IMG/VR virus record: IMGVR_UViG_3300030333_003061 | Coordinates: 22,118 to 86,117 of that record | Reading direction: 5' to 3' (one strand) | Source of the DNA: a virus | Length of the DNA: 64,000 nucleotides | Shown: in pieces, positions 24,406 to 49,973 of the stretch | How positions within the stretch are numbered: position 1 is the stretch's first letter | Layout: each line of letters opens with the position of its first letter | Notes under the pieces: generated by a model | What the model was told of the DNA's origin: nothing | The model's database searches: none | What the model saw: the letters and a program-made list of their open reading frames with translations, nothing else | Program-made: the position numbers and the translations under genes

Positions 24406-24654
24406 ATGACATGGTATTCAGTAGTTAGGAAATCGTCTATAGGAGATAAGTTCCTTAAAAATAGAGTTCGTATATACTATGAAAGGTTAAGATTGGCTAA
24501 ATGGATTAGAGATATGGACATTAATAGGCAAAATAAAAGTATTACAGTATATGTATATCCTGATACCGTTGGATTATTAATTGGAATAAGAGGAGAAACA
24601 GTAAATAAGTTATCAGAATCCATGGGTTGGACAATTAATATTAGAGGAAGATAA
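24406..24654 (+). CDS. KH-domain protein with MxW tag
   Basis: Starts MTWYSVVRK; VYPDTVGLLIGIRGETVNKL is a KH GxxG loop. Confidence 0.65.
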   Translation: MTWYSVVRKSSIGDKFLKNRVRIYYERLRLAKWIRDMDINRQNKSITVYVYPDTVGLLIGIRGETVNKLSESMGWTINIRGR

Positions 24655-24655
24655 T

Positions 24656-25852
24656 ATGTCGATGTATAAGGCTATGATGGAACTCCAGAAAAAGGAGAGA
24701 AAAACGCCCAATCCTTATGTTAGAAATCAAAAGAAATACAAACCCCATCATTCGCCGCCAAAAAATATAGATTTAATTTCTGACGAAAGAACAGATGATG
24801 ACAAAATGGAAATAATACTTGATGAACTTTGGGAATTAGTTCAAACAGGTTATATAAAAGATGATTACGGTGAAATATGGGATGCTGAACAAAAGCCAGG
24901 GCAAATATCGTTTAATGAATGGGTGGAAAATAATTATATAACAGATGAAGATATATTCGAAATATATCAAGATGTTATTGAAGATGTTTTTAGAGAAAAA
25001 GGGGTAGATGAAGCAGTAAAATGGTGGGATAGCGCGAAAATAAGAATGTTTGTTCCTCCATCTACTGCTAGAGGTAGAGAGATTGGAGACTCTTTAGAAG
25101 GATTTAGTCCTACTAGAGAAGTTAAGGTAAAAGATGAAAGAAGTGATGATGGAGCATATATACATGCAAATGAAACAGGAGACCTTAGACCACAAGGAGA
25201 GCAATTAGTGCCTATTGGAGCAAGTGATTACAATAAAAATAAAAAACAGGATTTAGTAACATTTGTTAATTCTACATTAGGAAAAGCAAAAGAAAAGTTT
25301 ACTAATAATATTATTGGGCCAAATAAAGAAGTTAATGTAATAATTTATACTCATTGTGATGATAAATTACCTGATGGGGTAGCAGTAAAAGTATTAGAAT
25401 TAATAAAGCGTGGTCATCAATTTGGTAAAATTAAAATGGATAAATATGGAGATTATGTCCAGGGCCATAAAAGAAAACAATATGAAATTGAAAGAGAAGA
25501 AGAATATCCAGAAAGGCCAAATATAACGGAAAGAGATAGATTAACAGGAAGGGCAAGATGGAAAAACGAACCAACAAGTGAAGACAGAAAAAAAGAAGGT
25601 TGGCAAAAAGTATTAGAAACAACAAATCCATCTTTACAAGACACTAAAGATATTACAGTAACTAGCAGAATAATTAGGACACAGAAAGGTAGTGATAGAC
25701 AATATAAAAATTATGTTATGATAGTTCAAGGAGATTATCCATTGTTTATGGCAGGAATAAGAGTTAATTGGGATATGGATGCAGATGAACGAACATTAAC
25801 TGAAACAGAACCTTTCATTAATGAAGAAGTATTAAATTGGAGGAAATGGTAA
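24656..25852 (+). CDS. hypothetical protein (398 aa)
   Basis: Long ORF in the operon. Confidence 0.7.
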   Translation: MSMYKAMMELQKKERKTPNPYVRNQKKYKPHHSPPKNIDLISDERTDDDKMEIILDELWELVQTGYIKDDYGEIWDAEQKPGQISFNEWVENNYITDEDIFEIYQDVIEDVFREKGVDEAVKWWDSAKIRMFVPPSTARGREIGDSLEGFSPTREVKVKDERSDDGAYIHANETGDLRPQGEQLVPIGASDYNKNKKQDLVTFVNSTLGKAKEKFTNNIIGPNKEVNVIIYTHCDDKLPDGVAVKVLELIKRGHQFGKIKMDKYGDYVQGHKRKQYEIEREEEYPERPNITERDRLTGRARWKNEPTSEDRKKEGWQKVLETTNPSLQDTKDITVTSRIIRTQKGSDRQYKNYVMIVQGDYPLFMAGIRVNWDMDADERTLTETEPFINEEVLNWRKW

Positions 25853-26245
25853 ATGGATTGGAAAGAACTAATAAAGAATGTAGATTTTGGTGGTAGTCAA
25901 GGTAGAGCCGATAGAAAGAAAAACATACCTGAAAAACCTACAAATCCCTTTTCTAAGAAAAAGGTAAGACCTAGCGGAAATAGAGTAGATAATACTGTTC
26001 CTAAAGGTAAAATTCCTCATAATAAATGTGATTCTTGGCCCGATTGTAGAAATAATGCTACTAAGTATTGTTATGTTTGTTGCATGAAAGCCTGTGATGA
26101 ATGTTATCCTTTATTTGGTGGTGGTCATCCTAGTAGACCATTTGATGGAGACCCAGATTATTATGAGCATTGTAATATTGATTCAGTAACAGGTGAATCA
26201 AAAGAAGTAGAAGAAGATAAATATTCATCAGGAAAGGATTGGTGA
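25853..26245 (+). CDS. MxW-tagged Zn-finger protein
   Basis: MDWKELIK; CDSWPDC...CYVCCMKACDEC. Confidence 0.65.
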   Translation: MDWKELIKNVDFGGSQGRADRKKNIPEKPTNPFSKKKVRPSGNRVDNTVPKGKIPHNKCDSWPDCRNNATKYCYVCCMKACDECYPLFGGGHPSRPFDGDPDYYEHCNIDSVTGESKEVEEDKYSSGKDW

Positions 26246-26249
26246 TTAT

Positions 26250-26783
26250 ATGAAATGGTTTGAATTAATAAAAAGACAAAGACCTAGAAAGCGTAGATAT
26301 AAGCCTGTGGCTAATATATTTGAAGGAGAAAAAATTCGTGATGAAGAAAGAATTGACCAACAAAAGAAAGAAGGCAGAAAGGGAAGTCCTTTCAAAAGAA
26401 CAGGTCTTGAAGGAAGAGATATTCAAGATAGAAAAGAAAAGTTTGAATTACAAAGGCAAAGAACGCATCATAATCCAAGAAATGTTTCTGCCGAATTAGG
26501 TGGAAGAAGTCGAGGAGGATTTTATGGAAAAGAAGAAGGAACTTCTAGAACACAAACTCCTAAAGGTAGATGCGCAATGTGCTCAAAAGCAATAAGTAAA
26601 AATAGTTCTTGGAAGAGAGAAGATAGGTTATTAACTACAGGAGAAATAGGAAGAATGAGATATTGTTATAGATGCATGAAAGAATTAGGTGGCCCTAAAG
26701 GATTTGTTAAAGACAAGAGCCTTTCTGGTAGGTCTACTGATGAGTTAAGTGCAATGCAAAGAGCAAGGCAGGGTAAAGAATGA
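26250..26783 (+). CDS. MxW-tagged basic protein with CxxC pairs
   Basis: MKWFELIK; CAMC...CYRC. Confidence 0.65.
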   Translation: MKWFELIKRQRPRKRRYKPVANIFEGEKIRDEERIDQQKKEGRKGSPFKRTGLEGRDIQDRKEKFELQRQRTHHNPRNVSAELGGRSRGGFYGKEEGTSRTQTPKGRCAMCSKAISKNSSWKREDRLLTTGEIGRMRYCYRCMKELGGPKGFVKDKSLSGRSTDELSAMQRARQGKE

Positions 26784-27112
26784 ATTGGTGGGAAATATTA
26801 AAATTGGCAAAAAAAGGCCAAGAATTAAAGTCTTTTAAGAAAGCCCTAAAAAAGAAATGGCAGGGGAATATTGTTTTTGAAGAAGTTAAAGGTAAAGGGC
26901 AAAAAAAGAGCCATCATCATAAATTACGAGTTACTGACACAATGACAGGAAATGACATTTATCCATTAGTTATTTCTAAATCTCCAAGGTCGACAGGTAG
27001 ACATTCATTAAAATTTAGAGATATTAGAAGAATGTTTCTACAAGAACACAAAGTAGATTTGAATGAACTATATCCTGACAAAAAGAAGAAAAAGAAAGGT
27101 AAGGATGATTAA
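26780..27112 (+). CDS. MxW-tagged basic protein, possibly HicA-like
   Basis: MNWWEILK; SHHHKLRV...VISKSPRS...DIRR pattern. Confidence 0.5.
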   Translation: MNWWEILKLAKKGQELKSFKKALKKKWQGNIVFEEVKGKGQKKSHHHKLRVTDTMTGNDIYPLVISKSPRSTGRHSLKFRDIRRMFLQEHKVDLNELYPDKKKKKKGKDD

Positions 27113-27442
27113 ATGAAGTGGTTTGATTTTATCAAAAAGAGATTCGATTCTAGAGATTTAGATGTAACAGATTTTAATTTACCTGAACCTCCGCATTCTA
27201 CAGGAACTCCAGATGTTAGATGGGAAGATAGAATAGCAGAAAATATTGAAAGAAAGAAAAACTTACAACCTATTGTTATAGAAGAAGGTGGTGAAGAATG
27301 CCCACCAGGAGAATTATGGTGTGAACAACATCAAGAATGTGAAAGTGAGAAATATTGGTTAACTCATAATAGGCATCTAACAGCAGAAGAAGTTGAAAAT
27401 CAAAAGCAATTTGAATCTAGTGGTAAACTGAGTGATAAATGA
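27113..27442 (+). CDS. MxW-tagged hypothetical protein
   Basis: MKWFDFIK; CPPGELWCEQHQEC. Confidence 0.6.
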   Translation: MKWFDFIKKRFDSRDLDVTDFNLPEPPHSTGTPDVRWEDRIAENIERKKNLQPIVIEEGGEECPPGELWCEQHQECESEKYWLTHNRHLTAEEVENQKQFESSGKLSDK

Positions 27443-28167
27443 TGAATTGGATGAAATTACTTAAAAGACGGGGAGATGTAGAAATACATCAAACTAGTGG
27501 TGGTAAAGAAGCAGGTTCATTTACCCCAGGTTTTCATCCAGACCCAAGGGAAAAAAGAACAATTAAATTATATTTAAAAGAAATAAAGGAAATATACACT
27601 TTCTTATATGGAAGAGCACCAACAGATAAAGAATTGGAACAACACTTTTTGGAAACATTATACCACGAATCAGGACATGCAGCCCATGAAGATGTAGAAA
27701 AACCTACAGCAGCAGACCCAAAGGGATGGAATATGATGGAAGGTAATACCAAAAATGTATTTGATAAAGAATGGGTTGCCTTTTCTACTCAATTTCCAGA
27801 TAAACCATATTATGTAATGATTGGATTAATGAATCATGGATTTATTAATGAGTATGCTAAACAAGTATTTGGTAAGATAGCACGATGGTTAAATAAAATG
27901 ATTCCTGATAACTATAATAGGCGAGACCAGTCAGAAAGAGGAGCATGGGGTGATGACTTACTTTACGAAATGAGAAACAAATTACTAACTTTACATTACA
28001 AGTATGGTAAGGTAGAATCTTCAGCAGGAAGATTTGTAGACTTAAATGCAGCAAATGTTCCAAAGACAAAGAAAGAAGCACTAGAAATGTATGGGGAAGA
28101 ACATAAAGATTTCATTAAAACTTTAAGATTGCCTGGAAGTTTAGATAGAAAGAATCCTTGGAGTTAA
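27439..28167 (+). CDS. MxW-tagged zincin-like (HExxH) protein
   Basis: MNWMKLLK; TLYHESGHAAHE with downstream E in KEWVAF. Confidence 0.65.
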   Translation: MMNWMKLLKRRGDVEIHQTSGGKEAGSFTPGFHPDPREKRTIKLYLKEIKEIYTFLYGRAPTDKELEQHFLETLYHESGHAAHEDVEKPTAADPKGWNMMEGNTKNVFDKEWVAFSTQFPDKPYYVMIGLMNHGFINEYAKQVFGKIARWLNKMIPDNYNRRDQSERGAWGDDLLYEMRNKLLTLHYKYGKVESSAGRFVDLNAANVPKTKKEALEMYGEEHKDFIKTLRLPGSLDRKNPWS

Positions 28168-28171
28168 TATT

Positions 28172-28546
28172 ATGTCTTGGTTTGGTATACTAAAAGCAGA
28201 ATTAGCAAAACCTGCTGTAGATGTTACTACAGGTAAAAGTCCTACTGAAGAATGTTGTAGTAAAACAATTGAATATATGAAATCAAAAGGAACGACTGGT
28301 ATACAAGGTTATATAAGAATTAATCAGAACCTACCTGTATCTGATGATAATATTGAATGGCGAGGAAATGCGCCTCTTGATGAATTAAATTGTGAGTTTA
28401 TTTATGAATGGCTAGAACAAGCAGCATTGAGTGACCGTGGAATGAATCGTACAAAGGTAAAAGCGAGAATGGCGAAATACAAAGACTTTTTGGATTATTG
28501 GGATAAATGCATGAAAGAGAAAGGAAATGCGGGAATGGAATTATGA
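28172..28546 (+). CDS. MxW-tagged protein with CC...C...C domain
   Basis: MSWFGILK; EECC...LNCE...WDKC. Confidence 0.65.
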   Translation: MSWFGILKAELAKPAVDVTTGKSPTEECCSKTIEYMKSKGTTGIQGYIRINQNLPVSDDNIEWRGNAPLDELNCEFIYEWLEQAALSDRGMNRTKVKARMAKYKDFLDYWDKCMKEKGNAGMEL

Positions 28547-29307
28547 CTTGGTTTACTGTTCTAAAAATGCCTAATCCTTTTGGTGGAAATTGGCAAACTT
28601 TAACAAGTTCTGAATATTATACAATGGATGATAATAATAAACAAGTTTATCATAATGCTATGCAAAGTTTTTATCAAAGACAAATTAAAAGAGCAGTTAC
28701 ACCAAGAAAAGCAGGTCAAGCCCCACCTGCAACAGATGACCAAATTAGAGGACTTAGAGAATTGTCTAGATTCCATGAAAGACAAAAGGACAGAATTAAG
28801 TTTGATAGTCCTAAAGATAACTATTATTCTTTAGATGAAGAAAAAGATAGAACAATGTATAAACCACGATATGATGCAGTTGAGAGAATGCCTCATACTA
28901 CTAAAGAAATGTATGATAAATATTCAAGAGAGGAAAAAATGAAGTATTGGGGTCGGTTGGCTGAAAAGATAAAAAGCGAATATGGACAAACAGATACAGT
29001 AGCATTTGCGAAAAAGATGTATCGGAGAATGGCAAACAATCCAAATTATAATCCACCATTTGAAGGAGATAAATCAACTAGAGAAGAATATGGAGATAAA
29101 CATAGGTTTAGAGATGTTAGCGAGTATGATAATTTTACAGATGAAGAAAAAAGAAAATATCATCTAAGAATGAGAGATAGAGCAAAGAAAGTAAACAAAA
29201 AAGATGAGATGAATTTTCATGGTAAAATGCATAGGCGAATAGACAATAATAGTCCTTTACCCACTTATCCTACACCTGAAGCACAAAAGGAGGCAGAAGA
29301 AGAATGA
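28543..29307 (+). CDS. MxW-tagged protein with three internal repeats
   Basis: MTWFTVLK; EY.....EK.KY repeats. Confidence 0.65.
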   Translation: MTWFTVLKMPNPFGGNWQTLTSSEYYTMDDNNKQVYHNAMQSFYQRQIKRAVTPRKAGQAPPATDDQIRGLRELSRFHERQKDRIKFDSPKDNYYSLDEEKDRTMYKPRYDAVERMPHTTKEMYDKYSREEKMKYWGRLAEKIKSEYGQTDTVAFAKKMYRRMANNPNYNPPFEGDKSTREEYGDKHRFRDVSEYDNFTDEEKRKYHLRMRDRAKKVNKKDEMNFHGKMHRRIDNNSPLPTYPTPEAQKEAEEE

Positions 29308-29663
29308 CTTGGTTTGATTTAGTTAAATCTGCAGAGATGAAAGAGTTTGAAATGCTCGCAAATAAATATGCAGATAAAGGAGATATGGTTCATTTAGATT
29401 ATCTTAGAAAGAAACATGGTAAAAGAAGCAATGAATTTTATGAAGCACTAAATATACAGATAACAAAGTATCTACAAGAAGAGCAAGATTGGCGTTCATT
29501 ACAAGATATTGCAAAGTCAATTAAAGAACAAAACCCTGGACTTAAGGACAAAGAAGAAAATCTAGAATCATTTTTAAGAAAAAGGTTGGAAACAATGAAT
29601 CTTACAACTAAGCAAGAAAGAGGCGTTGGAAGAACCGGAAAGAAAACATATTACAAGGTGTGA
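29304..29663 (+). CDS. MxW-tagged protein, possible winged helix
   Basis: MTWFDLVK; C-terminal ...GVGRTGKKTYYKV wing. Confidence 0.6.
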   Translation: MTWFDLVKSAEMKEFEMLANKYADKGDMVHLDYLRKKHGKRSNEFYEALNIQITKYLQEEQDWRSLQDIAKSIKEQNPGLKDKEENLESFLRKRLETMNLTTKQERGVGRTGKKTYYKV

Positions 29664-31726
29664 TTATTATGCCAGGCCAAATAAGAGTAATAGAATATCT
29701 TAATGAAGACCAGGTTCAAAAGATTTGGTATGAAAGAGTAGGTAAATTTTTAGGTTTTCCTGAATCTGGCGCAAATGCACTTTGGCCAAAAAATAGTGAA
29801 AGATATGGTGGTGATGGAACTACTATTTGGAGGCTCTTTTCGGGAGATGCTAGATTTCAAACTAAAACATGGTTAGGTTTTGGTGAAGGCTTACAATCAA
29901 ATGAAGCAATACCCTTAATGACCAGAACAGTAGCAGACACTGGAGATAAAGTAGTTTTTCTTGCTGGAGTATATGGTATAAATGAGGCAATGAGAACATA
30001 TTTAACAGCAGGAGGTAAAGAAGTTAGAAGAGGAAAACCATTAAAGGAATTAGTTTCTGCATATAAATTATTAAATCCTAATATAGAACCCGACCCTGTG
30101 CCGGAAGACCAAACAAGACTTGAAGATTTTGATGAAGAAGTTTCATGGGCTAAAGATGAAATGGAAGGATTTAAGAAACCTATAACTGACGAAGGAGAAA
30201 TAGTAATATCTGACCAAGAAAAAAGAATGGAATTAATGGCATTACTTCAAGAATTAGAACCTGGAAATTTATTTGATGAAACTCAAGCAGATATATTAGG
30301 AAGGTATGGTAATAATTGGATAATGTTAAGAATGTTTCCACCAAAAGACCAATATGCAAATATCCACTATAATAAATATATTTCTAATGGGTTTGTTAAG
30401 TTTGATGATTATGCAGATAAATTAATTAAGTTTTTAGATAGACAAATAACACTTGGAAATACCGGATTTACTAAAATCAATGAATATTTTAAAAGGATTG
30501 TAAAAGATGGCCCAAATTTAGGCGGCACAACAGGAGGAGCATTTTGGATGATTAGACCACCGAATAACAACAAACAGATATTAGAAATGTTTGGCGCATA
30601 TGAACAATTACCACTACAAAAAACATTCTTTGGAACAATTAAGAAATCAGATGTTAATTGGCAAAATATATTAAAGGCTGAAATGGCTCCAGCAGACGGC
30701 TCTCCACCTGATGATGAAGATGAAAAAGAAGATGAATATGATTACGCAAAGCCAGAAAAAGAAGAATTAGAAGATGGATTAAAGAGAATTAAACCATACG
30801 CAAGAGAAAGAGGAGATACCTTTATTATAGACGGAAAAGAGGAAACAGAAGGTGAATGGAAAAATTCTCCATTAGGGCAACAAGAAGTAGTAACAATGAA
30901 TTGGGAAGATTCCTGTTGTCAGAAATTAAAAGAAGATTTAATTAAACTGTATACTGTAGAATTAGACAATAGAAAGAAAGACATACATGAGGATAGAATT
31001 AGGCAAACTATATCAAACATGTCTTGTGCAGAATTGAGCGAATACATGGAACCTCCAACTGTAGCACCAAATAATTTTACAAATTTAAGATTTTTCGGAA
31101 TACTAGCAGGTGATTTAGACGGGGCTTTAAGGGAAGCATTTGATATACAAGGAATGGATGTTCATAGGTATTTATATGAGCAATATACTAAATGTTTAGA
31201 ATATCATCTCTCTAGTGTAATTAAGCCTCCTTCTGAATCAACTGACCCAGTAAAAGAAAAGTTAGATGTTCCAACAGGAGATATAGTTGTAGAAAGAGAT
31301 GTTCCTCCACATAGAGAATTTGAAGGATTTAGTTTTGATACTGGAACTTCAGATAAAGGTGAATTAACTGAAGACGAAAAGACTGAATATGAACGCATGA
31401 GAGAACAAGTCATTCACGGAAAACGAAAAGACACAAAAGACGATACATTCCAAGAAGAAGAAATGGCTCAACCAATGCAAGAAGAATGGTGGAGACAACA
31501 ACAACAAGATAGATTGATGCCATCAAAAGATAAATTTTTAAATGTATGGAATATGACTGTAAAAGGAATGAGAAATATACCATCAACGGTAAATAATGTT
31601 AAGAATGCAATTGAATGGCGAGATGCCAATGTAAGAGATAGATTTGGTTTTAGTGAACAACAATGGGCATATCTTTATAATAATTTTGAGAAAATACATG
31701 AAAAATATATGGGGTCGGGTTACTAA
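29660..31726 (+). CDS. large multidomain hypothetical protein with internal WxxILK tag
   Basis: 688 aa; internal VNWQNILKAE followed by a CC...C...C domain. Confidence 0.7.
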   Translation: MIIMPGQIRVIEYLNEDQVQKIWYERVGKFLGFPESGANALWPKNSERYGGDGTTIWRLFSGDARFQTKTWLGFGEGLQSNEAIPLMTRTVADTGDKVVFLAGVYGINEAMRTYLTAGGKEVRRGKPLKELVSAYKLLNPNIEPDPVPEDQTRLEDFDEEVSWAKDEMEGFKKPITDEGEIVISDQEKRMELMALLQELEPGNLFDETQADILGRYGNNWIMLRMFPPKDQYANIHYNKYISNGFVKFDDYADKLIKFLDRQITLGNTGFTKINEYFKRIVKDGPNLGGTTGGAFWMIRPPNNNKQILEMFGAYEQLPLQKTFFGTIKKSDVNWQNILKAEMAPADGSPPDDEDEKEDEYDYAKPEKEELEDGLKRIKPYARERGDTFIIDGKEETEGEWKNSPLGQQEVVTMNWEDSCCQKLKEDLIKLYTVELDNRKKDIHEDRIRQTISNMSCAELSEYMEPPTVAPNNFTNLRFFGILAGDLDGALREAFDIQGMDVHRYLYEQYTKCLEYHLSSVIKPPSESTDPVKEKLDVPTGDIVVERDVPPHREFEGFSFDTGTSDKGELTEDEKTEYERMREQVIHGKRKDTKDDTFQEEEMAQPMQEEWWRQQQQDRLMPSKDKFLNVWNMTVKGMRNIPSTVNNVKNAIEWRDANVRDRFGFSEQQWAYLYNNFEKIHEKYMGSGY

Positions 31727-32301
31727 TGACAATAGAATACCCAAATACAATTTTTGCTGAAGTAGAAATATATGAATTATGGAATAAACAACATGAGGAA
31801 GACCCTAAGAATTATATTAAATTTGAAATGAGAAAAGATAGAGTGCATTTATCATCACAATCTAGATTTCCTGGTATTTATTATGCGGCATTTAAGGATG
31901 GTAAAATCATTGCTTATTCTGGATGGAGAGAAGAACCGACTTTCTTTAGAATGAGTGGAACAAGGGTAGCAGAACACATGAAAAGAAAAGGTGTAGCGAA
32001 AACATTAATTGGAAAGAAAATAGAAGTAATTAATTCATCAAAGAAACCATCAATGGTGATTTTTAATAATGTAGATATTGCAGAAGCATGGAAAGAATCA
32101 TGGAAAAAATTAGGATGGGTTCCTCTTTCTGAACAATCAACTAAAGATAAACTTAGAGAAGTAACAGGAGATGATGAAATATATTTAATGTATCAAGATA
32201 AAGAAGATTCTTCTTTTGCATATTTCCCTTCTGGCTTTAATAAATCATGGGCAATCTTAACTAACTTTGAGAATCATATACTAAGATATGAGGGATTATG
32301 A
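31726..32301 (+). CDS. GNAT-family acetyltransferase
   Basis: GTRVAEHMKRKGVAKTLI matches acetyl-CoA motif A; WKKLGW matches motif B. Confidence 0.7.
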   Translation: MTIEYPNTIFAEVEIYELWNKQHEEDPKNYIKFEMRKDRVHLSSQSRFPGIYYAAFKDGKIIAYSGWREEPTFFRMSGTRVAEHMKRKGVAKTLIGKKIEVINSSKKPSMVIFNNVDIAEAWKESWKKLGWVPLSEQSTKDKLREVTGDDEIYLMYQDKEDSSFAYFPSGFNKSWAILTNFENHILRYEGL

Positions 32302-32432
32302 TGAATTGGTGGAATATAATTAAAGAAGGTGGAGCAGTAAGTTTTGGTGGTCATGGTGGTGGTAACCAAAGCGCATTATTCAACATAAGTTATGGAGAAA
32401 AGGAGGAAGAAGAAGATGCCGAAGAAAACTAA
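32298..32432 (+). CDS. MxW-tagged 44-aa peptide
   Basis: Manual translation MMNWWNIIKEGGAVSFGGHGGG...EEEEDAEEN. Confidence 0.55.
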   Translation: MMNWWNIIKEGGAVSFGGHGGGNQSALFNISYGEKEEEEDAEEN

Positions 32433-33573
32433 ATCAACTAAGAAATCTAGAATTACAATAGAAAGAGATGGTAATGAAGTTGAACAAGTGTTTGACCAAG
32501 CCAAGTTTAAGAAATCATTTGATAAGTGGAAGGATGATTGTGCAGCATCAGGTGAAGACCTTAGAATGAAAACAAACACGAATTCATTATTGGATATGGT
32601 TGCTAATCATGGTAAAACACATAGACCTCAAACAAAAGATAAAAATGCCATTGGTGCATCAGAAGTAGTTAAGAAATTATCTGAAATTCTAGATAACGAA
32701 GAAGGAATAGAAGAACCAGACCAAAAGTTCATTGATGACGCAATTAAGCAATTAGAAGAAATAGAAAAGGAAAATAATCCTAGAAATATATTATTTACAA
32801 TACCAATTGTTTCAAGAGTAAATAGAAAAACTTTAGAATATGATGAAGACACAGATGTTGTACAGATATATGGTCATTATAGAACTCCAGATTATGTTAA
32901 ATTTAGAAACTTAAAAGCAAAACTGAGAGAAAATGTAGACAAAGAAGATATGCCTCCTGCACCGACTAGTTGGTGGGATAAAGATAAAGATAAAGCAAAA
33001 CCTCCTCTTTGGCAAGCATTGTTTGCTGATGGTGATGGTGATGTTGTTTCCAAAGGATTATTACCAGTATTACGAGAAGCAGCAGAAATGGTAGATGATG
33101 ATAACATTAAATTACAACACTTAAGATTAAGAATTAAAGATAGTGGTTCTGGTGCTACAGCAAAAGATTTATGGTCAATTCCTGAAGTTCAAAAATGGGT
33201 TAAACAACAAGTAGGAAAGGAAAATAATCCAGGTGTAGGTATAAATAAAACTTCAGGAAACTTTAGAGATTCTCATTATGCTGAAACTGCTATGCCTAGT
33301 GTTAAATTCCCTGTTAAGTCAATTAGAGAAAGTAATTTCATAAAAGACTTAGCAGGATTTGAAGATATAGTAGGTAATTTAATTACTTATTCTGTTATTA
33401 TAACTAGAAGGCAGATGAGAAATCTTGCTATATTAGCGGGTTGTAAGAAAAGACCAGGCAAAGATACAGTTTATATGCCTGGAGTAGCAGAAGAAGATAA
33501 AGTAGTAGAAGAAGATAAAGAGTCTGACACAAAATTGAAAATGGATTGGCGAACAGTATTAAAGGGGAATTAA
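32416..33573 (+). CDS. hypothetical protein with C-terminal MDWRTVLK tag
   Basis: Long ORF ending ...KMDWRTVLKGN. Confidence 0.7.
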   Translation: MPKKTKSTKKSRITIERDGNEVEQVFDQAKFKKSFDKWKDDCAASGEDLRMKTNTNSLLDMVANHGKTHRPQTKDKNAIGASEVVKKLSEILDNEEGIEEPDQKFIDDAIKQLEEIEKENNPRNILFTIPIVSRVNRKTLEYDEDTDVVQIYGHYRTPDYVKFRNLKAKLRENVDKEDMPPAPTSWWDKDKDKAKPPLWQALFADGDGDVVSKGLLPVLREAAEMVDDDNIKLQHLRLRIKDSGSGATAKDLWSIPEVQKWVKQQVGKENNPGVGINKTSGNFRDSHYAETAMPSVKFPVKSIRESNFIKDLAGFEDIVGNLITYSVIITRRQMRNLAILAGCKKRPGKDTVYMPGVAEEDKVVEEDKESDTKLKMDWRTVLKGN

Positions 33574-33574
33574 T

Positions 33575-33805
33575 ATGACTTGGATGAAAATAATAAAACA
33601 GGAACAATTAATTCAACAAACATATAAACAATTTAAGGAACAAAATGCACATCTTTGGGCAGAAGCATCACAATTAGCAGGACAAGGAGAAATTGCAACA
33701 TTAGACTCTATAGTTTTAAGCGCAATTAAAGAAAATCTAAACAAACCAAATATGATGGAGATTGTTAAGATAACAGCAGAAAACTATATATTAAAGGATT
33801 GGTAA
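33575..33805 (+). CDS. MxW-tagged small protein
   Basis: MTWMKIIK. Confidence 0.6.
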   Translation: MTWMKIIKQEQLIQQTYKQFKEQNAHLWAEASQLAGQGEIATLDSIVLSAIKENLNKPNMMEIVKITAENYILKDW

Positions 33806-34464
33806 ATATGGTGAAGAGAAAGAGATGTAAATTCTGTAATCACGAAGACCGTGATGATTTAGAAGCACAGTTAGAAACATTGGCTATTGCAGCAGATGAT
33901 TTAGATAAACAGATGAATTGGCCTAGTGGAACTTCTGCTAGGCATCAGAGGAATCACATGGGAGATTATGTGGATGCGTCTAATCCTAGATGTAATCTAT
34001 GCACCCATGAATTAAGACCGATGTTAGAAGAAAAATTGAGTGAAGGAGATATTACTCCTAATGCAGTAGCATTGATGGTAGAATGTAGCGAAGAACAAGT
34101 AAAGCGACATATGACGAAGCATCTCCAACCACTCGTTCAAAAATCGGCAGCAAACATTATAGCGAGGAAAGAAGTAGACGAAATCGAGTCACTATCCCGA
34201 AACATAACTAGGCTTGAACAAAAAATTGATGTATTATTCGACCAAGAAGAAATGCACCCTAAGTATGTTGATAGTTTGACTAAACTTGCAAAGGAGATAA
34301 GAGAAAGCCTAAGATATCTTATGGAGTTCAAAGGAAAACTCGTTCATAAAAGGCAAGACACAGTTATTGTAGCGCAAATGCAAATAGTTCAAGAGGTATT
34401 AGCACAGAATCACCCTCAAGTTTGGTTAGATGTTAAAAGTAAAATGGAGGAGAAGTTACAATGA
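33799..34464 (+). CDS. putative terminase small subunit / DNA-binding protein
   Basis: Two CxxCxH...HxxxH HTH-like repeats plus a coiled coil; lies upstream of TerL. Confidence 0.45.
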   Translation: MVNMVKRKRCKFCNHEDRDDLEAQLETLAIAADDLDKQMNWPSGTSARHQRNHMGDYVDASNPRCNLCTHELRPMLEEKLSEGDITPNAVALMVECSEEQVKRHMTKHLQPLVQKSAANIIARKEVDEIESLSRNITRLEQKIDVLFDQEEMHPKYVDSLTKLAKEIRESLRYLMEFKGKLVHKRQDTVIVAQMQIVQEVLAQNHPQVWLDVKSKMEEKLQ

Positions 34465-34787: not shown

Positions 34788-34854
34788 GGCCAACAACCTG
34801 CTCAATGTTTCTTACTTGTTTAAGAGAAATCTTTGAAGGCATGGAGGAATTAGA

Positions 34855-41030: not shown

Positions 41031-41446
41031 GTTGGGAAAACATATTAAAGGCCAGAGGAAACTCTAAACATTTAAGTGTGTTCAAAGTATCAGAAGATGT
41101 TAGAAATGCTACAAGAAAATGGTCAAAAAAAGTTCAGCCAGGAAATTCTTTTTTCATTAGACATATTCGTAAAGCCATTATTCCTATATTAGAAGATATA
41201 TTAATGCCGAAATTGGAACCTACTATAAACCTAACGCGAAAAAAAGATGAATCAGATGATAATTATAAAAGAAGAAGAGTAATTCAAACCCAAAGAGTAA
41301 TTACTATATTTATTAATAAACATTTTAATCTCAAAGAAGCAGAAATAAGTAAATTTGATAAGACAATATTTAATGAATTAATGAGCCATCCAGATTGGAA
41401 TGTTACAGGAAAAACTGCTCATGTTGCGGATTTCGTGAGAGTATGA
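41027..41446 (+). CDS. MxW-tagged basic protein
   Basis: MSWENILK. Confidence 0.6.
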   Translation: MSWENILKARGNSKHLSVFKVSEDVRNATRKWSKKVQPGNSFFIRHIRKAIIPILEDILMPKLEPTINLTRKKDESDDNYKRRRVIQTQRVITIFINKHFNLKEAEISKFDKTIFNELMSHPDWNVTGKTAHVADFVRV

Positions 41447-41913: not shown

Positions 41914-42267
41914 ATGACTTGGATGGAAGTATTAAAAGGAATAGAAACTGAATGGATTTCAGATTGTTGTAATACTGTAAGCCGAAGTATTATAAATGAT
42001 TTTAAAGGAACAGGAACCAATGAATGGGATAAATGGATAAAATTTGTTAAAGAATCTACACTTAATGGTAATTGTGAAGAACTATTAGAAGAATTAAATA
42101 AAATAGAAGACCATAACGGAATGGAATATTTCCAAAACGAATATTTGGATGGAATTACACTAACAAGCGGTGAAATAGCAGACTTATATTTACGACTAAG
42201 AGATTACACTAGAGATTATGAAGAATGCATAGAAGACTTAACGGGCTTAGACCACAGATTTAGATGA
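41914..42267 (+). CDS. MxW-tagged protein with CC...C...C domain
   Basis: MTWMEVLK; SDCC...NCEEL...YEEC. Confidence 0.6.
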   Translation: MTWMEVLKGIETEWISDCCNTVSRSIINDFKGTGTNEWDKWIKFVKESTLNGNCEELLEELNKIEDHNGMEYFQNEYLDGITLTSGEIADLYLRLRDYTRDYEECIEDLTGLDHRFR

Positions 42268-42278
42268 GAGGGATTAAT

Positions 42279-42563
42279 ATGGATTGGTTTAAATTAATTA
42301 AAACAAGAAGAGGTAAAAGACTTGACCATAATATGGAAAGAATACTTAGAGAAAAATTAACTACTCCAATGTCTACTTATCAAATTATTGGTCTTCTTTC
42401 TGACGGGATTCGTGAAATAAATGACGGAAGAAAACTAACAAATCAAAGACCATTATCTACTAGAGGAATACCTGATAGGTTATCATTGCCTCATATGCTT
42501 AAAGTGCATCCTAATATACGGATAATACCAGGACACACAGCAGAATATGTTTGGGAGGAATAA
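42279..42563 (+). CDS. MxW-tagged protein, possible winged helix
   Basis: MDWFKLIK; PMSTYQI...LKVHPNI. Confidence 0.6.
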   Translation: MDWFKLIKTRRGKRLDHNMERILREKLTTPMSTYQIIGLLSDGIREINDGRKLTNQRPLSTRGIPDRLSLPHMLKVHPNIRIIPGHTAEYVWEE

Positions 42564-42566
42564 TAT

Positions 42567-42947
42567 ATGACTTGGTTTGAAACAATTAAAAAATCCAAAG
42601 TGGATTTATTTATAGAAAGATATTTACAATTCAATGCTGATGTTAGAGGTCTTCATGGAACAGTAAAAAACCCTGAAGGATTTTTACCAAATCATGTTGT
42701 TACTGCTAATGAAGATAATGTAAATGATAGAATTAGAGAAGTAATTAAAAATTATAAGTCTATTCTTAAATTGGGAACAAGAGGACAAACTATTGGAGAT
42801 GCTAATTATGATAAGTCAAAGCCTATCGGGTATCAAGTTAAAATTACACCGGAAGAAAGAAAACAATATGAAGAATTTATACAAGATTTAGAAGATTTGA
42901 TTAAAACAGAATCTAAGTATGATAATTGGAAAAAGGAGAATGAATGA
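42567..42947 (+). CDS. MxW-tagged hypothetical protein
   Basis: MTWFETIK. Confidence 0.6.
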   Translation: MTWFETIKKSKVDLFIERYLQFNADVRGLHGTVKNPEGFLPNHVVTANEDNVNDRIREVIKNYKSILKLGTRGQTIGDANYDKSKPIGYQVKITPEERKQYEEFIQDLEDLIKTESKYDNWKKENE

Positions 42948-44388
42948 TATGACTGAATTAGAAAATCTTAATTTTGCTCACCAAATGGATATGGAGTTAT
43001 CTAAGAATTCATTTCCTTATTTCTTTAAAAATGTATTAGGTATGATGTATCCTAAATATATGGAAGAGTGGTTAAATACAATGGAAACTACAGATAGAAC
43101 AGTAATTGTTTGTAGTCGTGACCACGGAAAATCTGTATTTATGCATTCATGGGTTGTTTGGAATTTAGTATTCCAAGAGCCACCATTTCAAATGCTATAT
43201 ATTTCATCTAACCAAAAGCAGACATTAGTTCACATGAGAGAAATAGATAGAATGTTTAATATTCCTCAATTAAAGAAATTCAGACCATCAAGAGGATGGG
43301 CTATTGGTAACATTACATTAACTAATGGTAACTCTGTTCTTGAAAGGTCAGTAGGTTCTCAGATTCGTGGTCTTCACCCTCAAGAAATTATCATTGATGA
43401 CCCTCTAAAAGAGTTCAGTTTAGTAGGTATTCAAAGAGTCACAGATTGGTTCTTTGGTGATATGATTCCAACACTTCACCATACTGCTTCATTAAGAATG
43501 ATAGGAACACCATTTACTTATACTGACATTTTCTCACAATTAGAAGAAAATCAAGCATATACTGTAAGGAAATATCCATGTTTAGATTCAATGAATGAAC
43601 CACTATGGCCAGAAAGATGGAATTATGAAGCACTAATGCAAAGAAAAGCAGAAATTGGCTCTTTAAAGTTTACAAGAGAATATTTATGCATACCTGTTTC
43701 TACAGGAACTGCGTTATTTTCTCAAGACCATCTATTAAATGCTAAAAATGAACATGCTATGCTTAAATTGGGTCATAGAAAAGAAAAAGGATATAGATAT
43801 TATGTTGGCGTTGACCCTGCAATTTCTACAGATGGAGATTACAATGTAATAATGGTATTAGAGGTAGATGATAACCAAAATAAAACAATTGTTCATGTGG
43901 ATAGAGCAAAAAATGTGCAATTTAGAGAAAATATTGATAAATTACGGCTAATTGGTCAAATATTCCAACCAGAGGTAGTATTATATGAAACAAATACTTT
44001 CGCAAAAGCCTTTACACAGGAATTACGCTCAGTTTCGGACTTAAATGTTAGAGATTTCAACACAACTAGAAGAAAAAAGCAAGAAATTATCCTAAATCTA
44101 CAAATGAACTTTGAAAACGGTAAAATTCATCTCCCTTATGCTGATAATAATAGTAAAAAGATGACTAATGCTTTAATTGAAGAACTTTCGATGTTCTCCA
44201 TCACAGAATCCGGCAAGTTTGAAGGAGTGGGTGCGCATGATGATTTGGTTATGGGTCTTGCTTTAGCAAATGCAGCCTCACAGACTCCAACAGAAGCATT
44301 TATGCTCCTTGACGACATGGAGATATTTGATGCTCCACAGTCGCCTCAAATCGGGCTTCCGCAGGGTATTATGGGGCTGAATTTTTAA
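42940..44388 (+). CDS. terL: terminase large subunit
   Basis: Walker A SRDHGKS, Walker B IIIDD, motif III IGTP, RNase H-like YVGVDPA...HDDLV. Confidence 0.92.
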   Translation: MNDMTELENLNFAHQMDMELSKNSFPYFFKNVLGMMYPKYMEEWLNTMETTDRTVIVCSRDHGKSVFMHSWVVWNLVFQEPPFQMLYISSNQKQTLVHMREIDRMFNIPQLKKFRPSRGWAIGNITLTNGNSVLERSVGSQIRGLHPQEIIIDDPLKEFSLVGIQRVTDWFFGDMIPTLHHTASLRMIGTPFTYTDIFSQLEENQAYTVRKYPCLDSMNEPLWPERWNYEALMQRKAEIGSLKFTREYLCIPVSTGTALFSQDHLLNAKNEHAMLKLGHRKEKGYRYYVGVDPAISTDGDYNVIMVLEVDDNQNKTIVHVDRAKNVQFRENIDKLRLIGQIFQPEVVLYETNTFAKAFTQELRSVSDLNVRDFNTTRRKKQEIILNLQMNFENGKIHLPYADNNSKKMTNALIEELSMFSITESGKFEGVGAHDDLVMGLALANAASQTPTEAFMLLDDMEIFDAPQSPQIGLPQGIMGLNF

Positions 44389-44393
44389 GCCAG

Positions 44394-45725: not shown

Positions 45726-45778
45726 AACAGCACAAATTTATTTAGAATGGTGGATTTATATTTATATGGAGGGATAAT

Positions 45779-47428
45779 ATGGTAGAAGAAAAAAGGACAT
45801 TTTCATTAGGAAACTTGTTTAGAAGACAAACTCCTAAACCAAAGGATAAAGAAGTATTTAATCCTGGTATTCAGGAAAAGAATAATGCTTATATGATTAC
45901 ATCGCCTATATTATATCATGTAGCACAACAATCAGTAATCGTAAGAACATGCACAACTCAATTAAAGAATGAAATCTTTAGAAGAGGATATACATGGGAA
46001 GAAAAGTTTGTTCAGAAGTGTAAAGATTGTGGTGCAGAACATGATTCTCCAGTAGAAGAATGTAAAGACTGTAGTTCTAGAAACTTAGTTAAACCTGATA
46101 AAAAACAACTTAAGTATGCTCATAAATTTTTAGATGGATATGTAAATAAATCAGAACAAATGTTTATTGATGTCTTAAAAGAATTAGAAGACGATTTGAA
46201 TATAATGGATGATGCATATATCATATTAGTTAAAGAATATTTCTTAGATGCTAATGGCGATATTAGAATGCATAGGATTAAAGAAATGTATAGGGGCGAC
46301 CCTGTAACTATGGCTTTATACACAGATGAAGATGGAACCAAAGGAACTTCTGGATTTACTTGTATTAGACACAGAAATATGATTTCTGAAGAAGACGGTA
46401 ATTCTTGTGAATATTGTGGTGAAAAACTATATCCAGTTTATTATGTTAATAGAGCACATGGAGAGGAACAATATTATTTGCAAGGAGAAGTATTACACTT
46501 TAGTAAATATAATCCAAGTAGGCTTTATGGATTATCTCCTGTATTGACATTATGGAATCATATTACTACTTTAATTGCCATGGAAAATTATGTAAATTCT
46601 TCATATTCTAAGGCTAGAATGCCTAGAGGATTATTAGCAGTTCAAACTAGAAATATTGATTCCATGAAATCCTTTTGGCGTGGAGTCAAAGAAAAGATGG
46701 AACAAGACCCTCATTTCATACCTGTTATGGGAATAGAGGCAGAAAACGGTAAAGGTTCTATTGAATGGATTAAGTTCTTAGATAGTCTAAAAGAGATGGA
46801 TTATATTTCTGTTAAAGACGACCTTAGAGATAGAATATCAGGTTTTTATGGTGTTAGTAAAGTATTCATGTCAGACAATTCTGCTAGTGGTGGTTTGAAT
46901 AATGAAGGTATGCAGATATTGGTGACTAATAGAGCAGTTGAGATGGCTCAAACAATATGGAATAATTATGTATTTCCATTCATTACTAAAGAGTTTGGTG
47001 TTACTGATTGGGAACTTAAATTACCACCATCAGAAGAAGAAGATGAATTATTTAGAATTAGATTAAGAGAATTAGAAGTTCAAGTTGCTGCTTCAATTAA
47101 GAATTTAGGATTTGAAGTAGAAATGGATGATGAAGGGAGATTTTCTTATCATAAGCCTCCACCTGAACCTCAAGGAAAACCTAAAGGTGAAGAAGAACAA
47201 ATTGAGCGTGACCCCTATGCTGGAACAAATATAGACCAACAACATTTAGGTGAAATGATGGAACAAGGAAATAGACCAACACAAGAAGAAGCGGGAGCAC
47301 CTGCAAAAGTAAAAGCAACAAGGAATAAACCAAGTTCAAGCACAGGGCCAGATAAGAGATTTACCGGATTACCAGCAGAAGCAGGTAATCAAAATGTAGA
47401 TAAAAGAACGGAGAGAAGAGTAGGATGA
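45779..47428 (+). CDS. portal protein
   Basis: Position after TerL; HFSKY...YGLSP, ARMPRGLL and ISGFYGV portal-like motifs; Zn-ribbon insertions. Confidence 0.85.
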   Translation: MVEEKRTFSLGNLFRRQTPKPKDKEVFNPGIQEKNNAYMITSPILYHVAQQSVIVRTCTTQLKNEIFRRGYTWEEKFVQKCKDCGAEHDSPVEECKDCSSRNLVKPDKKQLKYAHKFLDGYVNKSEQMFIDVLKELEDDLNIMDDAYIILVKEYFLDANGDIRMHRIKEMYRGDPVTMALYTDEDGTKGTSGFTCIRHRNMISEEDGNSCEYCGEKLYPVYYVNRAHGEEQYYLQGEVLHFSKYNPSRLYGLSPVLTLWNHITTLIAMENYVNSSYSKARMPRGLLAVQTRNIDSMKSFWRGVKEKMEQDPHFIPVMGIEAENGKGSIEWIKFLDSLKEMDYISVKDDLRDRISGFYGVSKVFMSDNSASGGLNNEGMQILVTNRAVEMAQTIWNNYVFPFITKEFGVTDWELKLPPSEEEDELFRIRLRELEVQVAASIKNLGFEVEMDDEGRFSYHKPPPEPQGKPKGEEEQIERDPYAGTNIDQQHLGEMMEQGNRPTQEEAGAPAKVKATRNKPSSSTGPDKRFTGLPAEAGNQNVDKRTERRVG

Positions 47429-47928
47429 ATGAGTGGTTTAATGTAGTTAAAGCCAGAAAGTATTATACTTTTGAGAATAGTGTTCCTCAGATGTATCATT
47501 TCTTAACAAGACTATTTGCGCCAGAAGAGAAAAGAAACCCAGCATTTCATAAGAAATATAAATCATGGATTGAACTTGATACAAATGACCAAGCGAGAAT
47601 AGTAGAGAAATTCATAAGAATGGATAAACAAAGAGAAGAAGCAGAAAAACAAACTAACCCTCGATGGTGGAGTCATAGTTATATTCCAGGAATTATTGTG
47701 GAATTTATGAATGACGGATATCCAATAGTTAATGAAGCCGAATTCCAACATTGGAGAAAATCGGCAATAGCAGAAAGAGAAGATGAAAATAATAATACTA
47801 GAGCACCTGCTGGAATGGGAGGATATAGTAATTGGTCATGGTTCCAAAGAAATTTGTATAAAGAATTAAAGGAAATATTTAGAAGAAACATTCCTACATC
47901 TAGAGGATATAAAAGAAGAAGTGATTAA
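47425..47928 (+). CDS. MxW-tagged hypothetical protein
   Basis: MNEWFNVVK. Confidence 0.6.
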   Translation: MNEWFNVVKARKYYTFENSVPQMYHFLTRLFAPEEKRNPAFHKKYKSWIELDTNDQARIVEKFIRMDKQREEAEKQTNPRWWSHSYIPGIIVEFMNDGYPIVNEAEFQHWRKSAIAEREDENNNTRAPAGMGGYSNWSWFQRNLYKELKEIFRRNIPTSRGYKRRSD

Positions 47929-48133
47929 GATGACAGAAAAAACTGTAAGAGAATTAGAAAGGGAACTTTCTATAGCAAAGAAAAAAGAACGCATGTCTAA
48001 TACAACAAAAGAACATGTGAATAGGGATTATGGTGTAATAGGCCCACAAGCAGTAAAGAAAGAAAGACCAGAATCGGGAGATACTCCTGATTATATCGCA
48101 CTTCCTAGTAGGAAGAAAGGAAGAGCAATTTAG
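47921..48133 (+). CDS. small hypothetical protein
   Basis: Operonic ORF. Confidence 0.55.
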   Translation: MIKMTEKTVRELERELSIAKKKERMSNTTKEHVNRDYGVIGPQAVKKERPESGDTPDYIALPSRKKGRAI

Positions 48134-48141
48134 GTGATACA

Positions 48142-49629
48142 ATGAACTTTATGGAAATATTATGGAATCAAGATAGTATTACCATAGAGAAAGCAAGTAC
48201 CACATTAGATGAAATAATGTCTTTAATTGGTAAACAAAAAGCAGTAAGTATGGGAATTACTAGAAAAGACTTACGAAAGCAATTAGAACAATGGGGAAAA
48301 GATTTTCAAACTTCTGAAAATAAACCAATGATATTTTGGTCTGATGCAGACATTAGTGCTCCTGATTTAAGTATGGGAAAAACCACTACTAGGAGAGCAA
48401 TTAAACCAAGAATTAATAATCCTTCATTTATGATAGATGCATTGATTCAAATAAAAACAGCAGATAATACCACAATTATTGATAAAATAATTAGTCTTCT
48501 TAGTGATAGGAAATCTAAAACAAAAAGAATACCAAGGGGCCAAGAAGACCCATATACAACAAGTGGAAAGGTTGGAGACAAAGAAATTAGAGAGTATAAT
48601 AATCAAGAAGACCCTCTACATGATTTATTAGATAAAATAGATAAAGGACATAATTATAGAAGAGATAGAAAATTACTTAGAGAGTTAATAGACAATAAAG
48701 TATTATCTAGTCATTATTTATCATTGGTATCGCAAGCACTATATGGAGAAAGTAAAAAAGTTCATCCAAGAATAATTGATTTACTAAGAAAACCAAAAGT
48801 ATACCAAGAATTTATGAGTTTCCTAAAATCACAAGGGAAGAATTTACCAAGAGAAGATGCTATGAGGGCTGCATTAGGAATGTTAGAAGGAAGAGCATCT
48901 TCAAATAAAAGAATAGTAGATTTATTGATTAATAGACCAGATGATTATAGGTTTAATGAATCAATGTATGATGGACATTTAGATATCATTAACTCTATAT
49001 TAAATAGAAATTTAGAAACTTTAGATGAAAGAATAGACCCAATAGCAGCAGAAGCAAACAATTATTGGGATGTTTTATTAGAAGAGATAAGAGAAGATTA
49101 TAATAATTTATCTAGACAACAAAAAAGAAAAACATCATCAGAACAGTTTGAAGGAAATAAGATAACTAATCTCATAAAAGAAATTCTTGAGGACATTCAA
49201 GACTTAGAACGCACACAAAAGGCAAAAGAAAAATTAATAGAAATAGGACAATCTAATGGTAAAAGTGGAACTATAAATAATACTGAATATGATGCAATGA
49301 TGGAAAAAGTTAACACATTAAAACAAACATATTATTTTAATAAATATACTGATGATGCACAAAGAAGAATGAATGATAGTGCTCCTGGAAAAAGGACAAT
49401 GCCCAAGAAAAAGAAAACTAATAATTTAGAGCGTCAAATAATTTCAAGATATCGAGAAATTAAAAGATTACTTAATGATGTAAAAAGAGAAAGGAATATA
49501 AAAACAGATTCTGATGTTGACTCTATGTTAAATGTAAGTAGAGATAGAGAAATATCTAGATACAACGATGCTTTAAGAGCAATTAGAGAACAATTCCCAA
49601 GAATAAATTTTGGAGATGAAGAAGAATGA
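48142..49629 (+). CDS. hypothetical helical protein (495 aa)
   Basis: GGTGAT RBS; long ORF. Confidence 0.7.
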   Translation: MNFMEILWNQDSITIEKASTTLDEIMSLIGKQKAVSMGITRKDLRKQLEQWGKDFQTSENKPMIFWSDADISAPDLSMGKTTTRRAIKPRINNPSFMIDALIQIKTADNTTIIDKIISLLSDRKSKTKRIPRGQEDPYTTSGKVGDKEIREYNNQEDPLHDLLDKIDKGHNYRRDRKLLRELIDNKVLSSHYLSLVSQALYGESKKVHPRIIDLLRKPKVYQEFMSFLKSQGKNLPREDAMRAALGMLEGRASSNKRIVDLLINRPDDYRFNESMYDGHLDIINSILNRNLETLDERIDPIAAEANNYWDVLLEEIREDYNNLSRQQKRKTSSEQFEGNKITNLIKEILEDIQDLERTQKAKEKLIEIGQSNGKSGTINNTEYDAMMEKVNTLKQTYYFNKYTDDAQRRMNDSAPGKRTMPKKKKTNNLERQIISRYREIKRLLNDVKRERNIKTDSDVDSMLNVSRDREISRYNDALRAIREQFPRINFGDEEE

Positions 49630-49973
49630 GATGGACTTATGAACTTAAAAAAGAAGATGGTGACATTTTTGATAAGACTAGCCCTAAACAGAAAAAGAAG
49701 TTGAAAAAATTATTACAATCAACTCAACCAACTGAATATATGGGCCAAGATTTTACAAAATTAGGAGACCTTCTTGATGAACTAAAAGGACTAGGTGTGA
49801 ATAAATCATCTAAAAAAATGCAGAAGAAATTTGAAGGTTTTGAAGAAGCAAATTTAGATATGGTTGCAGCAGCATCTGAATTAAGAAAAGAATATGAAAT
49901 TCTATATCGTCAATTACGAGGAATGATATATCCAAAGAGTAAAGGCGATTTAGGAGATGAGAAAGATGAGTGA
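49626..49973 (+). CDS. MxW-tagged hypothetical protein
   Basis: MRWTYELK. Confidence 0.6.
   Translation: MRWTYELKKEDGDIFDKTSPKQKKKLKKLLQSTQPTEYMGQDFTKLGDLLDELKGLGVNKSSKKMQKKFEGFEEANLDMVAAASELRKEYEILYRQLRGMIYPKSKGDLGDEKDE

Follow-up and report, generated by a model that had tools for sequence, protein, structure and literature searches.

A short terminal peptide shared by unrelated proteins of a magrovirus resembles the tail of its own protease-scaffold protein

The stretch of DNA considered here, referred to as the window, covers positions 22,118 to 86,117 of the IMG/VR record IMGVR_UViG_3300030333_003061, i.e., the right-hand 64 kb of one viral contig of 86,117 bp, which is the genome of a magrovirus, a virus of Marine Group II (Poseidoniales) archaea. 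The contig is built of two arms, one on the minus strand and one on the plus strand, the latter going from about 24.3 kb of the window to its end. On this plus-strand arm, a series of proteins start with the same short peptide, in which a Met is followed at a short distance by a Trp, two hydrophobic residues, and a basic residue, most often Lys. This peptide, hereafter the tag, was first pointed out in an earlier note written from the letters of the sequence, which counted about 23 bearers and proposed that the peptide addresses cargo to the capsid.

A six-frame scan for open reading frame (ORF) starts with the pattern M-x(1-3)-W-x-x-[ILVMFTA]-[ILVMF]-[KR] finds 22 strict N-terminal tags, all on the plus strand and between positions 24406 and 47928 of the window (Table 1), and no tag at any further start of the 86,117-bp genome on either strand. 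The earlier count is therefore correct except for the gene at 49626, whose tag is degenerate and has a Glu at the first hydrophobic position; its product belongs, in diverged form, to a family of 44 proteins with canonical tags in other genomes. The previous in-frame stop lies 0 to 15 codons before the tag, with the exception of the gene at 24406, and a G-rich site (GGAGG) similar to a Shine-Dalgarno (SD) sequence precedes the tags at positions −12 to −7. ATGA stop-start overlaps are frequent between the tagged genes and their neighbours, and two tagged genes begin inside the stop codons of other genes, those of the portal and of an 827-amino acid (aa) protein. The bodies of the proteins are unrelated, as first described, because no pair reaches E < 0.02 among the window proteins when the tag is left out (best E = 0.024), and the tagged proteins sum up to 3,446 residues, or about 12% of the genome. 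Regarding the claim that the tag is confined to the morphogenesis arm, the restriction to a single strand, shared with the head genes, holds and no copy occurs elsewhere; however, the tagged genes are mostly found upstream of the terminase (24.4–42.9 kb) and not among the capsid and tail genes.

The tag is not limited to the start of proteins, and both further copies listed in the earlier note are real: one is internal, at the joint of two modules of a 685-aa protein, and the other is at the C-terminus of a 393-aa protein. The internal copy, VNWQNILK, is not a hidden start, since its Val codon is GTT and lacks an SD site, nor does it mark the point where a relative of the 668-aa protein was fused, since the similarity between that protein and the 685-aa one ends at the tag. 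In the family of the 393-aa protein, the C-terminal copy recurs in at least 15 loci as ..DWRT[IV][ML]K followed by two or three residues, and several more families have a similar arrangement. Judging from these sequences, the tag appears to function irrespective of its position, whether at the N-terminus, the C-terminus, or a joint.

A side observation concerns the 495-aa protein encoded between the portal and the protease, whose relatives begin with MNFMEILW, MSFLDALLK, or MGEVLLK; these starts are tag-like and Trp-less, and may represent a degenerate or an alternative form of the address.

Table 1. Features of the window discussed in the text (positions are those of the window; aa, amino acids)
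Feature	Position	Strand	Remarks
ORF of the replication arm	1862-3403		ligase by the label of the earlier note only
JAB match	4937-5461	-	weak
E1-like ThiF protein	6388-6984	-	PF00899, E = 2.5e-13
Small beta-grasp-like (ubiquitin-like) protein	12738-12950	-	ends in VGG-Y
Tagged gene MTWYSVVRK	24406..24654	+	82 aa; first of the arm; start less certain (38 in-frame codons upstream)
Eight consecutive tagged genes	25853..29663	+	109-254 aa; unrelated bodies; starts 25853, 26250, 26780, 27113, 27442, 28172, 28543, 29304
685-aa protein with internal tag copy	29669..31726	+	VNWQNILK at 30653-30676, joint of two modules
Tagged gene MNWWNIIK	32301..32432	+	43 aa
393-aa protein with C-terminal tag	32392..33573	+	MDWRTVLK-GN, then stop, at 33541-33573
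Tagged gene MTWMKIIK	33575..33805	+	76 aa
Five tagged genes	34461..36552	+	46-336 aa; starts 34461, 34855, 35022, 35405, 35542
Tagged gene MTWLELLK	36554..38560	+	668 aa; largest of the tagged set
827-aa protein	38547..41030	+	untagged, inside the tagged block; conserved C-terminus ..YHIKGLYR, then stop
Tagged gene MSWENILK	41027..41446	+	139 aa; start overlaps the stop of the 827-aa gene
Three tagged genes	41914..42947	+	starts 41914, 42279, 42567; directly upstream of the terminase
Terminase large subunit	42919..44388	+	profile searches
440-aa protein	44403-45725	+	HNH-endonuclease-like C-terminal region (phrog_5046); between terminase and portal
Portal protein	45779..47428	+	profile searches
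Tagged gene MNEWFNVVK	47425..47928	+	167 aa; start overlaps the portal stop codon (ATGA)
495-aa protein	48142-49629	+	relatives with Trp-less, tag-like starts
Degenerate tag MRWTYELK	49626..49973	+	115 aa
ATP-dependent DNA ligase	50428-52944	+	PF01068; 838 aa; untagged; between portal and head protease
HK97-family prohead protease fused to coiled-coil scaffold	52984..54192	+	PF04586
F-D-I-L-K, first copy	53026-53040	+	border of the protease domain
F-D-I-L-K, second copy	53482-53496	+	border of the protease domain
Scaffold C-terminal tail	54145..54192	+	MSWTDIHNVISQFEE, then stop; first six residues match the tag
Major capsid protein	54198..55574	+	directly after the protease-scaffold gene
A-L-L-K of the capsid protein	54270-54281	+	candidate maturation site

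The tag is a hallmark of this magrovirus lineage. The pattern search in related genomes that the earlier note had called for returns, over 80 related loci (1.4 Mb), 534 Met-borne tags on the gene strand versus 3 on the opposite strand, and a Trp occupies position 3 in 21% of the ORFs of at least 50 aa, an 18-fold enrichment. The logo built from 542 copies reads M-[S 53%, N, T]-W-x-[D/E/N]-[I/V]-[L/I]-K, with the Lys present in 93% of them and no conserved position past it. At the second hydrophobic position all six Leu codons are used together with those for Ile and Val, and the Lys is encoded by both AAA and AAG; as the codons vary synonymously, selection is on the peptide, which is how the earlier note had read it. 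Codon 2 is skewed to AGT, AAT, and ACT (AGT occurs 239 times versus 5 for TCA, the commonest TCN codon listed), a nucleotide effect that is largely explained by the ATGA stop-start overlaps. Behind this constant peptide the genes change quickly: the 504 complete tagged proteins from 81 genomes form 182 body clusters, of which 101 are singletons, and in the family of the 668-aa protein the tag is retained though the bodies are only 20–24% identical.

Nor is the motif equally common outside of these genes, in agreement with the expectation of the earlier note. A strict DNA pattern for M-S-W-x-D-I-L-K has 65 matches in 2.35 Mb of viral loci, all of them on the gene strand. In bacterial and archaeal genomes (596 Gb) it has 36 single and scattered matches, with about 26 expected by chance according to our own estimate. 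Most of these 36 matches are located off real gene starts, and none of them is in a Poseidoniales record. A secretion or sorting signal of the host type can be rejected, because cellular genomes remain near the chance level and no hydrophobic stretch is found in any of the tagged families. No description of the tag was found in the magrovirus papers searched.

A counterpart of the tag exists within the virus itself, at the end of the protease-scaffold protein. This protein matches the head maturation protease of PHROG, and PF04586 is precomputed for it and for its relatives; it has the S78 peptidase profile, a coiled-coil region after it, and the capsid gene adjoining, as anticipated for a Peptidase S78 fused to a scaffold. 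Its C-terminus reads ..DFDVSE-M-S-W-T-D-I-H-N-VISQFEE. The tail [M/L]-[S/D]-W-x-[D/E]-[I/V]-[H/N] is conserved better than anything else in the scaffold half, both among 61 full-length relatives and in representatives down to 30% identity, and its Trp does not vary in 14 sequences that extend to 30% identity. The likeness was quantified with a position-specific score matrix derived from 409 tags, taken from other genomes only, and applied to all octamers of the long ORFs of this genome on both strands (n = 32,678). Over the first six columns of this matrix, the scaffold tail MSWTDIHN ranks third of 32,678, ahead of most true tags, while with all eight columns it drops to rank 29, owing to its H-N ending in place of L-K.

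The AlphaFold2 (AF2) model of the protease-scaffold has a beta-rich domain (residues 19–157), a disordered acidic region, and two long helices, and it ends with a disordered linker followed by a short terminal helix that starts at the Trp. A linker and a short terminal helix are the usual layout of the coat-binding tails in P22, 80-alpha, and HK97, so that the modeled end of the magrovirus protein would correspond, by analogy, to the arrangement common to such scaffolds. No solved relative came up for the capsid protein or for the protease-scaffold when their sequence profiles were searched.

The order in which tag and tail arose can be approached by comparing clades. Four of them were sampled via their protease-scaffold proteins, and the strict DNA matches were counted per near-complete genome. 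The lineage of this virus has 3–13 matches per genome and clade P0128, whose protease is 55% identical, has 8–15; clade P0135 (43% identical) has none in five genomes, and clade P0137 (40% identical) has one in five genomes. In the latter two clades, neither strand carries the motif above background, and another distant query, P0136, matched no viral contig. These two tagless sister clades (10 near-complete genomes, 0–1 tags) keep the scaffold tail, which in the P0135 type ends with ..M-S-W-E-E-V-H-Q-L. Because the tail is kept where the tag is missing, the tail looks like the old and general element, and the tag like a later copy of it made in one branch. Moreover, a tail conserved in all the clades implies that its receptor must be common to all of them, and this reasoning from sequence points to a core head protein, in the simplest case the capsid protein, as what recognises the tag.

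In the P0137 clade, a few proteins contain internal peptides of the forms ..K(A/S)W(D/E)DLIKFGDC and ..(D/E)IWEDIVKA.. despite the lack of tags in these genomes.

The ending of the tag, two hydrophobic residues and a Lys (h-h-K), has parallels in the protease-scaffold and in the capsid protein. F-D-I-L-K flanks the protease domain on either side, is conserved to at least 95%, and in both cases falls in a low-confidence boundary segment of the AF2 model, outside of the core. Residues 23–31 of the capsid protein contain a conserved G-N-A-L-L-K|S-A-G, of the pattern G-N-x-L-L-K|S, which is a candidate maturation site. In the protease-scaffold, h-h-K is found 6 times versus 1.8 expected (z = 3.2). 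These data are suggestive, and compatible with an enzyme of the HK97 type that would cut after Lys.

As for the tagged proteins, searches against PHROG and Pfam with 20 window proteins (10 tagged and 10 large) left the tagged bodies essentially unmatched and retrieved no internal-protein family, and Pfam searches with 150 representatives of the tagged families gave 12 isolated weak matches, such as zinc ribbons, KH, EF-hand, and PAP2. A membrane-like segment is absent from all 182 family representatives; their median grand average of hydropathicity is −0.9 and their isoelectric points (pI) are bimodal, with 54% below 5.5 and 25% above 9. The bodies are hydrophilic and soluble, and in this respect cargo-like. 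The AF2 model of the 668-aa protein is alpha-rich and multidomain, with a mean predicted local distance difference test (pLDDT) score of 71, and its first eight residues are a low-confidence appendage detached from the body; a Foldseek search of this model against the PDB gave no match (best E = 0.37).

The assignment to the magroviruses follows from the agreement of the head module, the ligase placed among the structural genes, the tRNA-Leu, the two arms, and the size of 86 kb with the published description, in which the head-module ligase and the tRNA-Leu are magrovirus traits and the viruses are assigned to Marine Group II archaea (PMC5434244). The genome thus combines a tailed-virus head module, a replication arm of archaeal type, an ATP-dependent ligase in the structural module, and a size within the range of about 65–100 kb. 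The minus-strand arm encodes the E1-like ThiF protein, a TFIIB-type zinc ribbon, the weak JAB match, and the tRNA-Leu. Marine IMG/VR contigs, the longest of about 100 kb, contain 197 relatives of the terminase at 77–94% identity, and a blastn search of the terminase-portal region against deposited phage genomes gave no match. Between the two arms, the divergent region from 18000 to 24300 has few long ORFs, a GC content raised to 0.38–0.40, and repeated DNA, whose minus-strand frames contain ..IW(F/S)xFVK(K/R)PRRV.. at 20290, 21476, and 23117. Magroviruses are among the most abundant archaeal viruses of the surface ocean, their non-core genes are almost all unannotated, and their host is still uncultured.

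The explanation that we favour, and consider somewhat probable, is that the tag is a docking label imitating the scaffold tail, by which cargo is loaded into the procapsid, freed there by the head protease, and carried out with the DNA. The peptide M-[S/N/T]-W-x-[D/E/N]-[I/V]-[L/I]-K would mimic the conserved tail with which the protease-scaffold of this virus ends. Scaffold tails normally attach to the inner side of the assembling capsid shell, and the tagged proteins would be drawn into the procapsid via this same site, with the tag at the N-terminus, at the C-terminus, or at a joint. The tag would depart from its model mainly by the Leu-Lys ending, and as h-h-K also borders the protease domain and lies near the N-terminus of the capsid protein, this ending probably lets the HK97-type head protease release the cargo inside the head. 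The cargo would be a large and rapidly replaced set of small soluble proteins, which would exit the head together with the DNA at the next infection. The modular, head-linked peptide address of the earlier note gains indirect support from the likeness to the scaffold tail, the C-terminal use, the single strand, and the absence from cells, while the packaging, removal, and injection parts of that proposal, i.e., capsid binding, cleavage after the Lys, retention in the virion, and delivery to the host, are steps that we infer.

Several points weigh against this docking and release. Most of the tagged genes precede the terminase, in a region that in many phages is occupied by accessory or early genes, and the receptor of the scaffold tail is an assumption taken from other phages. 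If h-h-K were a cut site, its depletion in the cargo bodies is marginal (80 observed versus 98.6 expected, z = −1.9), and the F-x-I-L-K after the protease domain could be structural instead of a cut site, because it is conserved even in distant tagless relatives. Moreover, the head would need room for 22 cargo species, 3,446 residues in all, besides 86 kb of DNA. Finally, the bodies yield no functional clue in the Pfam searches with the 150 representatives, and calling the tagged proteins effectors is a guess because they have almost no recognisable domains.

Another possibility is that the tag does target the procapsid, but that its bearers are auxiliary or sacrificial internal proteins, such as extra scaffold, spacers, or DNA-condensing and pressure-tuning proteins, which would either be degraded and expelled during maturation or remain in the head and do nothing in the cell infected next. 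All of the docking evidence fits this possibility equally well, as do the highly charged and hydrophilic bodies with their bimodal pI, about a quarter of them strongly basic, the near absence of enzyme-like domains, and the fact that the tagless sister clades build heads with no such proteins. We nonetheless judge it unlikely, since the extreme turnover (182 clusters and 101 singletons in 81 genomes) is more typical of arms-race genes and some of the families are long and well folded, as the 668-aa protein with its mean pLDDT of 71. A different receptor is envisaged if the tag docks its bearers onto a viral hub other than the capsid, namely the 827-aa protein or the ubiquitin-like protein, for joint action in the infected cell, an option that seems to us unlikely as well. 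The 827-aa protein is found in 70 related loci and is confined to the tag-bearing clades, being present in 4/4 tag-bearing versus 0/10 tagless genomes, with no lead from Pfam, PHROG, or the ESM Atlas. The gene for the ubiquitin-like protein is likewise present in 10/10 genomes of the two tag-bearing clades (48–77% identical) and in 0/10 of the two tagless ones, and it shares the minus-strand arm with the E1-like ThiF protein. In this variant the W-x-x-[I/V] core of the tag, which fits the generic form of ubiquitin-like-binding motifs, would be read like the aromatic-x-x-aliphatic motif that interacts with Atg8/LC3 (the LC3-interacting region or Atg8-interacting motif); however, the candidate reader has no Pfam match and is not of the Atg8 type. 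The four clades also amount to one phylogenetic contrast, in which any lineage-specific gene would co-occur with the tag, and clades without either candidate hub still conserve the scaffold tail.

The remaining alternatives dispense with a docking partner. An action of the tag at or near translation, as an N-terminal ramp, a nascent-peptide signal, a stability signal, or an N-degron, would agree with copies that are mostly at the extreme N-terminus behind a good SD-like site, and with the strongly A-starting codon 2 (AGT 239 versus TCA 5), which reveals some pressure at the nucleotide level. Yet the A at +4 comes mostly from the ATGA stop-start overlaps, the hydrophobic and Lys positions vary synonymously, C-terminal and internal copies are conserved, and so is a non-initiating M-S-W-x-D-I within the scaffold tail; because the tag is position-independent and has this internal counterpart, readings based on initiation or on N-terminal stability are weak, and we regard them as very improbable. 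Lastly, the 24 conserved nucleotides might serve as module boundaries for the recombinational shuffling of accessory genes, with the peptide as a by-product. The very fast turnover of the gene set and the location of the tags exactly at gene boundaries point in this direction, but third positions and Leu/Ile codons are not conserved, which leaves little DNA identity for homologous recombination, the Met-Trp spacing is variable, and the scaffold gene contains a conserved copy of the motif as well. Such an origin is hardly credible in our view, and shuffling may be a side benefit of the tag.

Returning to the docking label, a more ambitious version of it would make the tag a sufficient and portable packaging code, copied from the scaffold tail, with which more than 20 rapidly replaced proteins per genome are delivered to Marine Group II archaea. 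This version is advanced tentatively, as possible and rather doubtful; if true, no archaeal virus would have had such a protein-delivery arsenal described before, and HK97-fold capsids would gain a ready-made cargo tag. A shared address would give about one-fifth of the head-arm genes, and about 12% of the genome, a common fate in the virion interior, and it would flag a large and fast-evolving set of candidate proteins for host takeover or anti-defence in an uncultured host. The apparent origin of the tag from a scaffold tail also illustrates how a cargo-loading system can evolve, and a tag sufficient for loading would be a candidate tool to load proteins into HK97-fold shells.

The closest known system, as an analogy and not as a family to which this tag belongs, is the capsid-targeting sequence of T4, with which the earlier note had already compared it. 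The T-even internal proteins are a diverse set sharing only this sequence. It brings IPI-III and Alt inside the prohead, whose protease clips it off, and proteins of foreign origin are packaged when they are fused to it (PMC3012670). In both viruses a short terminal peptide is the only common feature of diverse proteins encoded near the head genes. The likening works at this level and does not extend to homology, as no PHROG or Pfam match connects the magrovirus tag or its bearers with the T4 internal proteins. Further differences are that the protease is gp21 in T4 and of the HK97 type (PF04586) in the magrovirus, whose host is archaeal; that the T4 sequence targets the scaffolding core, whereas the magrovirus tag copies the scaffold's own tail; and that the latter is also found at joints and at C-terminal ends. 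In scale the magrovirus set is much the larger, since sequence analysis gives 22 genes that take up about 12% of the genome, and at least 182 families in the lineage.

Encapsulins use cargo-loading peptides, which are short, usually C-terminal and sometimes N-terminal, to dock unrelated cargo inside an HK97-fold shell, and the magrovirus shares with them the presence of a short terminal peptide on unrelated proteins. Membership in this group is rejected because the magrovirus is a full tailed virus, with terminase, portal, maturation protease, and tail-side genes all present; in addition, the peptide sequences are unrelated, and the cargo of encapsulins consists of one or few enzymes, whereas that of the magrovirus would comprise many small proteins with no assigned role. 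The third comparison is with P22 gp8, 80-alpha, and HK97 gp4, in which the scaffold or the protease is held inside the procapsid by a short C-terminal helix that follows a flexible linker. The protease-scaffold of the magrovirus has such a tail in its AF2 model. We know of no case in P22, 80-alpha, or HK97 in which this tail has been copied onto dozens of other genes, whereas in the magrovirus it has apparently been turned into a general address.

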